A stretch of DNA of 64,000 bases, taken from NCBI GenBank assembly GCA_963812135.1, contig CAWETU010000001.1:992001-1056000 (forward strand). The letters are read 5' to 3'. Position numbers and translations under genes: made by a program. The DNA is from Vulcanimicrobiota bacterium (lineage in GTDB: Bacteria > Vulcanimicrobiota > Vulcanimicrobiia > Eremiobacterales > Eremiobacteraceae). Shown here piece after piece: positions 9,802 to 48,939 of the stretch. Positions within the stretch are counted from its first letter, which is position 1. Each line of letters opens with the position of its first letter. Below the pieces are notes generated by a model. That model was not told where the DNA came from and searched no databases. It worked only from the letters and a program-made list of their open reading frames with translations.

Positions 9802-9825
9802 CGGTCGGATAAATTCGACCGCTAC
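9802..9825 (-). repeat. GTAG-type REP
   Basis: cggtcggataaattcgaccgctac between divergent genes. Confidence 0.75.
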
Positions 9826-44843: not shown

Positions 44844-45759
44844 CCAGAATCGTTGCCCCGAGCGGCACGAGCTCGATCGTCGCGCCCTGCGTTTGGGCGA
44901 GCTCCCCATCGACGTGCATCGCGAGCCGTCGTTCAAAAGCGATCTCAATCCGGCTTGCGCGAAACGCGGTGACGTTGGACTCATCGGCGTGCGCGCCGGC
45001 GCGGATGCGGTGCATGAGCGCCATGCGTGCCGGTAAGCCCGCAACGTCTCTGAACGCGTAGCAGTCGAACACGCCGTCGTCGAGTCGAGCGCGGGGCGCG
45101 CCGCGAAATCCTCCGCCGTACCATGCGCCGTTGCCGACCGTGACCATCACCAGGTCTTTGAAACGCATATCGGCGGCGCTTGTGCGGATCGTCGCTCCCA
45201 CCGGCTTGACCGACAGCAAACCGCGCAGCGCGGCAAGATAGTATGAGAAGCCCTTCGCGAGTCCGCTTGCGCGGATGCGCACCGCCAGGGCGGCCACTTC
45301 GGCGTCGAGACCGATGCCGACGCAGTTGAGAAAGCGCTGTCCGTCCACCGTGCCATAGTCGATCCGTCGCTCGACGCCCGTGCGCAAGACGTCGAGTGCG
45401 GGTTTCCCGGGTTGCACCCCCAACGCCGTGGCGAGATCGTTGCCGGACCCGCACGGCACGATGGCGAGCGTCGTCGCATCCGGTGTGGACAGTGCATCGA
45501 ACGTCAGTGAGAGCGTGCCGTCGCCGCCGATGCAGACGAGCAGCGGACGACCAGCAGATGCCGCGTGTGAAACGGTTTCGTTGAGACGGCGCGAAAACGC
45601 GGGTGTCAAATCCGGCTCGACGATCGCGACAGGCGGACCGCCAAGCGTGCGTTCGACATCGCCGACCAAACCGTGGGCTTTGCCGCTGCCCGCCCAGCGG
45701 TTGGCCACGATGATGTAGGGTCGAATAAATTCTACCCCCACAATGGTGTCCGAGGTCAC
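44833..45759 (-). CDS. Diacylglycerol/lipid kinase family (YegS/DgkB); start approximate
   Basis: N..AG.G, GGDGT, P.GSGND.A, G.G.DA, GN...YGGG and VDGE. Confidence 0.88.
   Translation of the reverse strand: MTSDTIVGVEFIRPYIIVANRWAGSGKAHGLVGDVERTLGGPPVAIVEPDLTPAFSRRLNETVSHAASAGRPLLVCIGGDGTLSLTFDALSTPDATTLAIVPCGSGNDLATALGVQPGKPALDVLRTGVERRIDYGTVDGQRFLNCVGIGLDAEVAALAVRIRASGLAKGFSYYLAALRGLLSVKPVGATIRTSAADMRFKDLVMVTVGNGAWYGGGFRGAPRARLDDGVFDCYAFRDVAGLPARMALMHRIRAGAHADESNVTAFRASRIEIAFERRLAMHVDGELAQTQGATIELVPLGATILAAE
45715..45738 (+). repeat. Degenerate GTAG-type REP at the DAG-kinase 5' end
   Basis: gtagggtcgaataaattctacccc. Confidence 0.6.
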
Positions 45760-45895
45760 GGGGCGCGGTTCAATGATGCGCGGGAGTTGTCCCGCGAAAA
45801 GGCACGGAGGAAGCGTGAGCAACTTCCTCCTGCCCCTACGACTAAGCGTCCACGGGTTTCGTTACACGCGAGGAGAACGGTGTGGTGAAGCTCAT

Positions 45896-47101
45896 ATGAT
45901 GACCATTGGCCGCCTTGCCGGCATCGAGATCCGCGCCCATTATTCCACCCTGATCGTCTTCGGCGCCCTGACGAGCGTCCTCGCCTATGGCTACTTGCCC
46001 GTGGTCACGCCTGCGGCCGATTCGCTCGAGCGTCTCGCCGTCGCCATCATCGTTTCCTCACTGCTCGTGGCGTCGATTCTCGCGCACGAGCTCGCGCACG
46101 CGTTCGTCGCGCGCAGCCGCGGGCTGACCGTCAGCGGCGTCACCTTGTACTTGTTCGGTGGCCTTGCGCACGTCGGCGGTGCGCGCAGCGGACCCGGCGA
46201 CGACATCGCGATCGGCTTGGCCGGTCCGGCCATCAACGCGCTGTTCGCGGCTGTCTTCTTAGCCGCAGGCGCGTCCGTCATGCACGCGAACGCGCAGGCC
46301 GCGTTGCTGCTCATCAACCTCGGTCTGGCGAACGCACTGCTTTTCGGGGTCAACGTGCTGCCCGGCTATCCGATGGACGGCGGCATGGTGCTGCGCGGTG
46401 TGCTATGGAAGCTGACCGGCAACGTCGTCGCGGCGACGCGCCGCGCTGCGACGATCGGCAAAGCGCTTGCGTATCTGATCGCGGCCGCAGGCGTGTGGCT
46501 GCTCTTGCGCGGCGACGTCATCGACGGCATGTGGGTCGTGCTCATCGGCTGGCTACTCGCCGGTCTCGCCGAAGGGGCGTATCGCGGCATCATCACGCGC
46601 ACGGCGCTCGAAGGGTTGCGCGTCAAAGATCTCTGCGCTCGCGACGTGCCCGTGCTGCAGACCTCGGACACCGTCGCCACCGCGGCCGCGTTGTTGCGTT
46701 CGGGCACATCATCGCGCATCATCGCCGTCATGTTCGGCGAGCGATTGGCCGGACTCGTGGCGGACATCGACGTCGCGCGCATCGCGTCGAGCGACGCGGA
46801 GGCGACGTCGATCTCATCGATCATGCTGCGCACCGGCGGCCAGCCGACGCTGGACGCCGACTGCGACGCGATCGTGTTGATCCAAGCCATGCCGGCCAGC
46901 CCGCTGCGCTGCATCATCGTCGTCGACGAGCGCGGCGACTATCTCGGCCTCGTGCGCCACGAAGACGTCACGCGCTACGTCGAGATGATCGAGACGCTGG
47001 GCAACTCCAGCGCGCTCAGCACCCGCTGGCTGCGCCGCCTCGGCGCGCGCCAGGATGCTAGCGAGTCACTTCAATCTCCAGCGCATTATTCAAACGATTG
47101 A
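45896..47101 (+). CDS. Site-2 protease (M50) with degenerate CBS domains
   Basis: GIEIR.H, AHELAH, AGP..N and NVLPGYPMDGG. Confidence 0.88.
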   Translation: MMTIGRLAGIEIRAHYSTLIVFGALTSVLAYGYLPVVTPAADSLERLAVAIIVSSLLVASILAHELAHAFVARSRGLTVSGVTLYLFGGLAHVGGARSGPGDDIAIGLAGPAINALFAAVFLAAGASVMHANAQAALLLINLGLANALLFGVNVLPGYPMDGGMVLRGVLWKLTGNVVAATRRAATIGKALAYLIAAAGVWLLLRGDVIDGMWVVLIGWLLAGLAEGAYRGIITRTALEGLRVKDLCARDVPVLQTSDTVATAAALLRSGTSSRIIAVMFGERLAGLVADIDVARIASSDAEATSISSIMLRTGGQPTLDADCDAIVLIQAMPASPLRCIIVVDERGDYLGLVRHEDVTRYVEMIETLGNSSALSTRWLRRLGARQDASESLQSPAHYSND

Positions 47102-47585
47102 AATAGTTGAACAGGCCGATCGAGCAAATGATCTCGATGATCTGCTCGTCGTTGTAATGCCGTCGCAGATCATCCCATAGCGGCTGCGCGAGGCCCGTCG
47201 GATCTTTGGTGAGCGCCTCGGCCACCGCGAGCGCTGCTTTTTCCGATTCGTTGAAGCGTTCGCTCTTCGCGTAGTCGCGCAGCGCGGCGATCGTCTCATC
47301 GTCCGAACCGAACCGCCTTGCCAAGGCGGTATGTGAAGCCATTCAGTATCGGCACGAGTTCAAGGTCGAGACGAGCGTGATGCACAGCTCCTTGAGCCGT
47401 TGCGGCGCGGCACCGGGTCCCGTGACCGCGGCCATGTGCTCCGACGCCGTGCGCATGATCGCCGGCGTGACCGCAAGCGTGCGGAACATGTTCGGGTAGT
47501 TGCCGCGCGCCTTGAAGAAGCCCTCAAGCACCGGCTTGGCTTCGTCAGGCGCGTCCTTCGGATCGATCGCGGGCAGTCTGGGCAT
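47058..47585 (-). CDS. AhpD/carboxymuconolactone decarboxylase-family peroxidase, predicted selenoprotein (UGA at 47343-47345 = Sec)
   Basis: The two track ORFs are in frame and separated only by TGA, giving NSCRY-U-MASH at the family CxxC..H motif; hairpin 12 nt downstream. Confidence 0.85.
47312..47330 (-). promoter_or_regulatory. Candidate bacterial SECIS element
   Basis: mRNA ACCGCCUU-GGC-AAGGCGGU: perfect 8-bp stem, G-initial small loop about 20 nt 3' of UGA. Confidence 0.7.
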
Positions 47586-47652
47586 TTCTCACCTCGATGA
47601 TATCTTGTCCAAAGGAAGCCGTGTTTACGTGCGGCAACAGTTGCGACCTCTG

Positions 47653-48939
47653 ATGAAGAGTGTACAGAGCCGTAGCGCTGCCCTTTTCGAACGCGCTCGC
47701 GCCGTCATTGCCGGCGGCGTCGATTCGCCGGTCCGCGCGGGCGGCGCCGTCGGGGCGCCGCCGCCGCTCATCGCGCGCGCGCAGGGCAGCCGCGTCGTCG
47801 ACGTCGACGGTCGCGAGTACGTCGACTATCTGTGCGCCTACGGTCCAGTGTTGCTCGGCCACTCGCATCCGGCGGTCAGCGCGGCCGTGGCTCGCGCCCT
47901 CGAGGATGGCGCGGTGTTCGGCGCCACGCATCCCGAGGAGATACGGCTCGCGGAGCGCATCGCGACGCTGATGCCATCCATGGAGCGCTTGCGCTTCGTC
48001 AACACCGGCACGGAGGCGTGCATGAGCGCCGTGCGCCTCGCGCGTGCGTTCACCGGACGTGAGACCATCGCGCGCTTGGGCGGCAACTACCACGGGCACA
48101 GCGACGAGATGATCTTCTCCGCTGGCGCGTCGTCAGCGTCGACGCCGACGCTTGCATGCGGCGTCACGAGCGTCGTCGTCAACGCCGTGCGCGTGTTGCC
48201 GTATAACGATGCGGAGGCGATCGAGCGCGCGCTCGAAGATAGGGCCGTCGCAGCGTTGATCATGGAACCGATCGCGGGTAACATGGGGCTCGTGCTTCCG
48301 GAAGACGGCTATCTCTCGCGCGTCCGTGAGGCGTGCACGCGAACCAATACTGTGCTGATATTCGATGAGGTCATCACCGGCTTCCGCGTCGGCTTGGGCG
48401 GCGCGCAAGAGCGCTACGGGGTACGGCCCGACCTCACGTGCATCGGCAAAACGTTGGGCGGTGGATTGCCGATCGCGGCGTTCGGCGGCCTGCGCGACAT
48501 CATGGCATATTTGGCGCCCGAGGGTAGCGTTTTCCAAGGTGGCACGTTCGCCGGCAATCCGGTGTGCGTCGCCGCCGCGCACGCGTTCCTCGATGTGCTC
48601 GAAGCTGACGCGGGATTCTACGAGCGGCTCGACGCGCTCGCCGGGCGGCTCGCGGCGGATGCATGCGACGCTTTATCAGACGCTGGCCTTGCGTATCCGG
48701 TTGTGCAGCTCGCATCCATGGTCGATTTCGCCTTTCGCGCCGGCGCGCCGCCGCGCGACTGCGCGCAAGCGGCTGAAGCCGACGGCGACGCGTACGCGAG
48801 TTATTATTGGAAGATGCTGGAGCGCGGCATCTTCTTGCCGCCGTCCAAGATGGAGCTCATGTTCGTGACCGCGGCGCATACGCGTGAAGACGTCGACGTC
48901 ACCGTTAACGCGATGCGGCACGCGCTGGCGGGCGCCTAG
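47653..48939 (+). CDS. hemL: Glutamate-1-semialdehyde 2,1-aminomutase
   Basis: GGVDSPVRA, NTGTEA, YHGH, EPIAGNMG, FDEVITGFR and GKTLGGGLP. Confidence 0.9.
   Translation: MKSVQSRSAALFERARAVIAGGVDSPVRAGGAVGAPPPLIARAQGSRVVDVDGREYVDYLCAYGPVLLGHSHPAVSAAVARALEDGAVFGATHPEEIRLAERIATLMPSMERLRFVNTGTEACMSAVRLARAFTGRETIARLGGNYHGHSDEMIFSAGASSASTPTLACGVTSVVVNAVRVLPYNDAEAIERALEDRAVAALIMEPIAGNMGLVLPEDGYLSRVREACTRTNTVLIFDEVITGFRVGLGGAQERYGVRPDLTCIGKTLGGGLPIAAFGGLRDIMAYLAPEGSVFQGGTFAGNPVCVAAAHAFLDVLEADAGFYERLDALAGRLAADACDALSDAGLAYPVVQLASMVDFAFRAGAPPRDCAQAAEADGDAYASYYWKMLERGIFLPPSKMELMFVTAAHTREDVDVTVNAMRHALAGA

Follow-up and report, generated by a model that had tools for sequence, protein, structure and literature searches.

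We analysed a stretch of 64,000 nucleotides (nt) from a Vulcanimicrobiota bacterium (hereafter the window; positions 992,001 to 1,056,000 of contig CAWETU010000001.1, assembly GCA_963812135.1), and we consider it very probable (at roughly 0.92) that 47058-47585 on its minus strand is a single gene, encoding a 175-residue selenoprotein with the AhpD/CMD fold, whose UGA codon 81 would be decoded as selenocysteine (Sec) through a bacterial Sec insertion sequence (bSECIS). Read in frame, 47585-47058 runs from Met1 (47585-47583) through 175 sense codons to TAG (47060-47058), and its sole internal stop is the TGA of codon 81 (47345-47343), in the context ...VSTLNSCRY-TGA-MASHTALARR.... The listing of open reading frames (ORFs) splits the gene at this codon into 47343-47585 (80 aa) and 47058-47342 (94 aa); a first-pass annotation of this DNA had taken the two ORFs for one frame cut by a TGA at the second CxxC position, and the frame read bears this out. 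Codon 81 is the second position of a C78-x-x-U81 redox motif, in which Cys78 (codon TGC, 47352-47354) would presumably be the resolving Cys. Together with Glu66 (GAG, 47390-47388) and His85 (CAT, 47331-47333), all on the minus strand, the motif forms an E-x11-C-x2-[C/U]-x3-H core; E-x11-C-x2-C-x3-H, with Glu66 and His85, is what we take to be the AhpD catalytic core motif. A Shine-Dalgarno-like GAGGUGA (47589-47595, minus strand), read from the letters, lies 3 nt upstream of the start AUG.

The probable selenocysteine codon and its hairpin

The 12 nt following the TGA (AUGGCUUCACAU) lead into a hairpin, ACCGCCUU-GGC-AAGGCGGU, at 47330-47312 on the minus strand (5' arm, 47330-47323; loop, 47322-47320; 3' arm, 47319-47312). 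Its stem is a perfect 8 bp and its 3-nt loop begins with G, just as the first-pass annotation had it; the loop lies 20 nt past the UGA, and folded alone the hairpin reaches -11.2 kcal/mol. These values all satisfy the published bSECIS model as set out in a 2026 review (loop of 3-9 nt with G in the first two loop positions, stem of 4-16 bp, 16-37 nt from UGA to loop, minimum free energy ≤ -7.5 kcal/mol; PMC13188914). The arrangement also resembles the Escherichia coli fdhF-type SECIS and its SelB factor in placing a stem-loop with a small, G-first apical loop just 3' of the UGA within the coding region; however, in the window element an unbulged 8-bp stem carries a loop of 3 nt.

We searched 61 related genomes with stops read through and recovered a match at E ≤ 0.001 in 28 of them; the pairing analysis was confined to the 14 best loci (E ≤ 8e-30), and weaker paralogue-like rows, three with one TGA, were left aside. 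In an alignment of the 14, codon 81 is TGA in eight (G000, G005, G001, G013, G020, G059, G035 and G036; motifs C[RED]YU, CDYU and CTYU) and Cys in the other six, at the identical codon, which is the Cys/TGA pairing for which the first-pass annotation had proposed to align homologues. The TGA forms come from at least six genera, the most distant at 41% protein identity, and in all of them the two halves of the protein are intact and evidently constrained.

All eight TGA orthologues (8/8) carry an 8-bp hairpin at the same offset, and in their alignment pairing is kept in 98.4% of the 64 pair cells. Compensatory change on both sides affects 3/8 base pairs (A-U/G-C; C-G/G-C/A-U; U-A/C-G), and neither the paired percentage nor the covariation score was matched in any of 500 column shuffles (0/500). 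Sliding the 3' partners by 1-3 columns lowers pairing to only 30-58%, and in the six Cys forms pairing over the hairpin columns is 27%, a level that slid or shuffled versions also reach. Three Cys orthologues, those of genus g4, encode the same Ala-Leu-Ala-Arg at the hairpin site in codons that are unable to pair. The hairpin, whose conservation in homologues had been put forward as a check, is thus kept with covariation where TGA stands and gone where Cys does. These comparisons support the view that the downstream hairpin is a conserved bSECIS, apparently selected as RNA.

The genome itself (2.79 Mb in 6 contigs, rated 98% complete) encodes the machinery that such a signal would need. A tRNA-Sec at C1:612209-612298 (RF01852, 75.7 bits against a cut-off of 47; ARAGORN anticodon tca, that is UCA) sits ~430 kb upstream of the selenoprotein gene on the same contig, selA (TIGR00474, 523 bits) and selB (TIGR00475, 298.2 bits) adjoin at C1:620259-623509, and selD (TIGR00476, 381 bits) lies at C1:531860-532789, the three protein genes all scoring above their cut-offs. 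The four genes that the first-pass annotation had named for a search are therefore all present, and its view that this organism decodes UGA as Sec is borne out by a full set of Sec machinery. TGA is nonetheless the commonest stop, terminating 475 of 1012 long coding-like frames, and therefore what we see would be site-specific recoding and not a changed genetic code.

Two further genes in the genome appear to use the same signal. A gene for the formate dehydrogenase alpha subunit, FdhA (locus L047, G000:C1:445126-448221, plus strand; Pfam PF00384, PF04879 and PF01568) contains an in-frame TGA (...ENQARIUHSSTV...) with Pfam molybdopterin domains on both sides, and 11 nt past it the hairpin GGUGCCCG-GUC-UGGGCACC. 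A DsbA-like gene (locus L048, G000:C1:1251382-1251999, plus strand; PF01323, 95.4 bits over residues 5-192) has its CxxC as UxxC (MDRIINIWSDVIUPFCY), with an 8-bp hairpin and GUU loop 13 nt past the TGA; this TGA is at codon 13, and gene callers would therefore either overlook the gene or pick a start farther downstream. Both hairpins share the build of the window hairpin (8-bp stem, 3-nt G-first loop). Note that these genome-wide scans were home-made heuristics (coding filters on GC content at third and second codon positions, GC3/GC2, plus a hairpin rule), and that their yield is a lower bound and not the selenoproteome: the first filter missed the target gene itself, owing to a GC3 of 0.71 in the C-terminal half of that gene, a relaxed motif scan gave 401 hits that were mostly wrong-frame noise, and a SECIS-shaped scan gave 46 hits, three of them convincing by eye and two Pfam-confirmed.

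The TGA is also stable across data sets. Contigs of four public runs that cover 47343-47345 have no alternative letter listed there, while nearby synonymous differences are displayed, and TGA at codon 81 recurs in independent assemblies. Two findings that the first-pass annotation had named as fatal to its proposal, a TGA unique to this assembly and TGC or TGT in the reads, thus did not appear, the latter among the listed contig differences (50 being undisplayed). One contig from an RNA library (X9; 47104-47417, 18 differences) bridges the TGA; since this contig derives from a related strain and could reflect carried-over DNA, we do not count it as expression.

Public annotation treats the gene as two proteins. 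By exact look-up, the 80-aa half belongs to a public cluster of 7 ("hypothetical protein") and the 94-aa half to one of 17 ("alkylhydroperoxidase family enzyme"), in agreement with the earlier claim that gene callers would miss the Sec gene. Identity to the best full-length relative in the databases is only 72%, although orthologues with 83-91% identity exist as DNA, as expected if the close Sec forms have all been split by gene callers. As a side observation, the cluster representative of the 80-aa fragment (≥ 90% identity) is labelled 'Magnetospirillaceae bacterium', at odds with the Eremiobacterota titles of other relatives; this deposit may be a mislabelled metagenome-assembled genome.

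Probable exchange of selenocysteine and cysteine

Across the 14 homologues Glu66, position 81 (as Cys or Sec) and His85 are invariant, and Cys78 is variable: it is retained in 8/8 Sec forms, and is replaced by Ala or Thr in the three Cys orthologues of genus g4. The six Cys forms accordingly fall into two kinds, CxxC in G055, G047 and G037, and S[AT]PYC, with the first Cys lost, in G009, G024 and G018 of genus g4. A tree of the 14 rows places the g4 Cys clade (support 100/100) within a group of nine, the remaining six of which are Sec forms, and at least three Sec/Cys changes are required over the whole tree. The simplest reading of these sequences is that Sec was exchanged for Cys in place, and that the hairpin then decayed and the first Cys changed to Thr or Ala; the tree is rooted by midpoint only, and the Sec-to-Cys direction in genus g4 would be a parsimony reading.

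Position on the chromosome agrees with an exchange in place. A peptidase gene of the M50 family with CBS domains, convergent with the selenoprotein gene in the window, adjoins both Sec forms (G000, G005 and G001) and g4 Cys forms (G009, G024 and G018), synteny being judged on this neighbour alone. Of 201 genomes sampled more widely across the phylum, 30 have a homologue at E ≤ 1e-25, which contains one TGA in 8 of them and none in 22. selA scores above its cut-off in 57/61 related genomes, Cys-form genomes included (three in this tally, G010, G013 and G016, are unpublished), and therefore selenium use looks general in this widespread soil phylum.

Database relatives show a further state of the active site. 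Among 110 full-length relatives (E ≤ 1e-20, from 356 candidates), 88 are TxxC, 16 CxxC, one CxxW and one CxxG, and four have no motif match. The TPYC (TxxC) arrangement of most of these relatives (P0002-P0111) resembles that of peroxiredoxins, and the g4 orthologues (loci L023-L025) have S[AT]PYC. Two relatives, P0032 and P0090, show CEYW and CEYG at the CxxC/CxxU site; the W and the G probably reflect TGA read under code 4 or code 25 by the depositors' gene callers, and the two proteins may be hidden Sec forms. Four distant AhpD-like homologues also contain one in-frame TGA (G012:C10:20868-21176, G045:C51:9445-9843, G025:C3:840013-840513 and G128:C16:37246-37617), and these may be further AhpD-like selenoprotein paralogues.

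The CxxU AhpD-like family is itself known. CxxU AhpD-like proteins were reported from the Sargasso Sea set (27 sequences; PMC1088965) and the Global Ocean Sampling data (AhpD-like 1, COG2128, CxxU, 299 genes; AhpD-like 2, pfam02627, CxxU, 70 genes; PMC2398784), and the first-pass annotation was to that extent right that Sec-containing AhpD-like proteins were known from metagenomes. The 2026 review has a table row 'AhpD-like protein TIGR01926 CxxU' (PMC13188914), and the paper on the BSepDB database uses the AhpD-like CxxU family as its browse example (PMC13326102). CxxU AhpD-like proteins have thus been a catalogued selenoprotein family since 2005, and the window gene is not a new kind. It is like the family (COG2128 / TIGR01926; Zhang, Gladyshev and co-workers, 2005 and 2008) in its AhpD/CMD fold, in Sec at the second CxxC position, in a bSECIS directly downstream and in widespread Cys homologues; it is unlike it in coming from soil Eremiobacterota and not from marine or deltaproteobacterial sources, and in having nearest full-length database relatives that are mostly TxxC (88/110). 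The TxxC state is not described in those parts of the accounts of the family that were consulted. Our literature search, which did not extend to the supplementary tables of large surveys, returned no paper joining 'Eremiobacterota' with 'selenocysteine', and the phylum goes unmentioned in the parts of the main texts of the 2026 review (PMC13188914) and the BSepDB paper (PMC13326102) that were consulted, their supplements and the database itself lying outside the search.

What is modestly new here, then, is the use of Sec across Eremiobacterota and the in-place series of Sec, Cys and Thr-x-x-Cys active sites. A broader reading, which we offer tentatively and would rate somewhat below even odds, is that Eremiobacterota are an unnoticed, phylum-wide Sec lineage with a compact, lineage-typical SECIS, and that the AhpD-like locus is a natural experiment on selenium's need for a resolving thiol. 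Under this broader reading the selenoproteome would be small, with at least FdhA, DsbA-like and AhpD-like members, and its signal would lie 11-13 nt past the UGA and consist of an 8-bp stem closed by a G-first loop of 3 nt; one syntenic position would hold C-x-x-U, C-x-x-C or T/A-x-x-C, the nested Cys forms having neither the first Cys nor the hairpin. This would suggest that selenium requires the resolving thiol, and that the sulfur version is a one-cysteine, peroxiredoxin-like (TxxC) enzyme. The locus offers a clean case of Sec giving way to Cys at one fixed place on the chromosome, in which the RNA signal has decayed and the partner residue has changed accordingly, and it should help in asking why some enzymes retain selenium; the known picture of Sec decoding is unchanged by these findings. 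The gene stands split in public annotation and two more selenoprotein genes are open to the same error, and therefore the annotation of Eremiobacterota genomes should allow for Sec.

Protein family, proposed mechanism and rival explanations

We scored the protein with Cys standing in for Sec at position 81. Pfam CMD (PF02627) matches residues 41-124 in one stretch across the TGA (E 3.4e-15; 56.3 bits, cut-off 23), and the best NCBIfam model is TIGR01926, "peroxidase-related enzyme". TIGR01926 scores across the orthologous group straddle the 81.8-bit cut-off, from 72 to 99.6 bits, with G005 (81.3), G001 (78.4), G020 (78.8) and the g4 Cys forms (72-77.2) below it and G013 (83.4), G059 (99.6), P0024 (88.5), P0031 (89.0) and P0040 (93.4) above it; full-length relatives carry the Joint Genome Institute (JGI) name 'uncharacterized peroxidase-related enzyme'. 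Fourteen solved structures match at E ≤ 0.01. The best are the debrominase Bmp8 (6ohi, the top match, E 1.2e-15, residues 8-173), 2oyo ("uncharacterized peroxidase-related protein") and 6k40 (an AhpD); these relatives align over almost the whole protein, within residues 4-173, and their CxxC falls on C78/U81. Judged from these matches, the protein is probably a member of the "peroxidase-related enzyme" (TIGR01926-like) branch of the AhpD/CMD fold. The first-pass annotation had called it an AhpD-like CxxU peroxidase; 'AhpD-like CxxU' holds, while 'peroxidase' does not follow, the best solved relative being a debrominase.

Among characterised proteins of this fold, AhpD of Mycobacterium tuberculosis is alkylhydroperoxidase D, an AhpC reductase. 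The window protein is like it in matching the AhpD core domain (TIGR00778, 42.3 bits against a cut-off of 27.8) and in its E-x11-C-x2-C-x3-H layout, U replacing the second Cys here; in contrast, it scores only 20.7 bits against a cut-off of 191.95 with the true AhpD subfamily model, TIGR00777. An AhpD orthologue was ruled out by this last score and by the lack of an ahpC next to the gene. Bmp8 (6ohi, 6ohj), a thiol-dependent reductive dehalogenase of the CMD fold, is alike in its CxxC aligned on C78/U81 but unlike in its low identity and in the lack of a bmp-type biosynthetic neighbourhood at the window locus; the match shows only that the CMD fold serves chemistry beyond peroxide reduction, and the fold serves peroxide, disulfide and dehalogenation chemistry among the solved relatives. 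Two curated AhpD-superfamily models that allow Sec, NF053654 ('YciW-related (seleno)protein') and NF041238 ('alkylhydroperoxidase-related (seleno)protein'), show weak full-length similarity (75.4 and 40.6 bits); membership in either was rejected, these scores being far under the cut-offs of 310 and 175 bits.

On the mechanism that we propose, SelD and SelA would make Sec-tRNA(Sec), to be carried by SelB; SelB would bind the G-first apical loop of the hairpin 12 nt past UGA-81, and Sec would be delivered at this codon in place of termination. The predicted product has the active site E66...C78-R-Y-U81-M-A-S-H85. By analogy with the family, U81, at the place of the family's indispensable second Cys, would be the attacking nucleophile, and E66 and H85 would assist catalysis; C78 would resolve the oxidised selenium as a selenenylsulfide, to be re-reduced by a cellular thiol reductant. 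Candidate substrates are hydroperoxides, protein disulfides and organic electrophiles.

We weighed three other accounts of the internal TGA. UGA-81 might end an 80-residue piece and the adjacent AUG restart a 94-residue piece, both then assembling as a Cys-only enzyme. The stop and start codons are indeed adjacent (UGAAUG), and public gene callers list both halves as proteins, but the codon after the TGA is ATG in only 5/8 TGA orthologues (CTG in two and GGG in one), which also tells against the suggestion in the first-pass annotation that the C-terminal half might be expressed separately from this ATG, and no purine-rich ribosome-binding motif was seen by eye in the 15 nt upstream of it. Moreover, termination would delete a position that is invariant as Cys or Sec and would leave unexplained why the hairpin covaries among the TGA forms and is missing from precisely the forms with Cys; we regard a split gene as quite improbable. 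Selenium-free read-through of UGA-81, whether by near-cognate insertion of Trp or Cys or by Cys loaded on tRNA-Sec, would likewise yield a full-length protein, and we think it less probable still. Although Cys forms of the enzyme are viable and two database relatives print W or G at the site (CEYW, CEYG), those letters have a simpler candidate explanation in TGA translated under other code tables, and this account has to contend with a full Sec pathway, an FdhA with a classical Sec site, a hairpin that fits the SelB-type model and a genome in which TGA is the commonest true stop. A pseudogene, or a sequencing or assembly error, would need no more than a nonsense change in a Cys codon, one base separating TGA from TGC or TGT; however, 8 genomes of at least six genera share this TGA and have an undamaged frame on either side of it, and at codon 81 no difference is listed for contigs from other runs, leaving this account with the smallest chance of the three, close to negligible.

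Against decoding as Sec, or against parts of it, the following points weigh. The 66-nt local fold is unexceptional (z = -1.86; 9/200 shuffles were equally stable), and it is because of the comparison across orthologues, not the single-sequence fold, that we take the hairpin to be more than chance. Even there relatedness alone can beat a shuffle control, the slid-partner and Cys-form controls being the stronger ones, and the eight TGA rows are related lineages and not independent samples; one of them, G013, is an unpublished genome, and the conclusions are independent of it. The read evidence consists of contigs only, which drop rare variants, and 50 differences are undisplayed. The TIGR01926 score of the window protein is 0.4 bits under the curated cut-off (81.4 vs 81.8), a peroxidase-type function is suggested by the family name alone when the closest solved structure is that of a debrominase, and the selenoprotein gene has no gene for a redox partner beside it. 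Finally, the presence of selenium in the protein and the binding of SelB are predictions from the sequence. On balance, recoding of UGA-81 by the SelB pathway through the SECIS hairpin is supported by the comparison across orthologues.

Neighbouring genes and other features of the window

The genes around the selenoprotein gene (the M50/CBS peptidase, an aminotransferase, acyl-CoA ligases, solute-binding proteins and a lipid kinase) provide no functional lead, and there is no peroxiredoxin gene or ahpC among the 12 neighbouring genes scanned. A scan of the window with ARAGORN and Rfam at gathering thresholds found no RNA gene or family. The M50/CBS gene (45743-47101, plus strand; PF02163, PF00571) serves as a synteny marker and lies outside the system; its longest ORF runs on the opposite strand into the last 44 nt of the selenoprotein gene (47058-47101). 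The divergent neighbour, also outside the system, encodes a class-III aminotransferase (longest ORF 47500-48939, plus strand; PF00202, 229.8 bits), and its true start is probably an ATG near 47653.

Related-strain contigs from two runs (X2 and X3) have extra letters inserted at 47597-47606, in the intergenic region between the selenoprotein and aminotransferase genes. The insert includes a palindrome of the CGGTCGAA-nnnn-TTCGACCG type, and the same palindrome is present twice more in the window, at 1246-1265 and 9802-9821 (0 expected by chance), and also after many TGA stops genome-wide; it looks like a mobile palindrome of the repetitive extragenic palindromic (REP) type.

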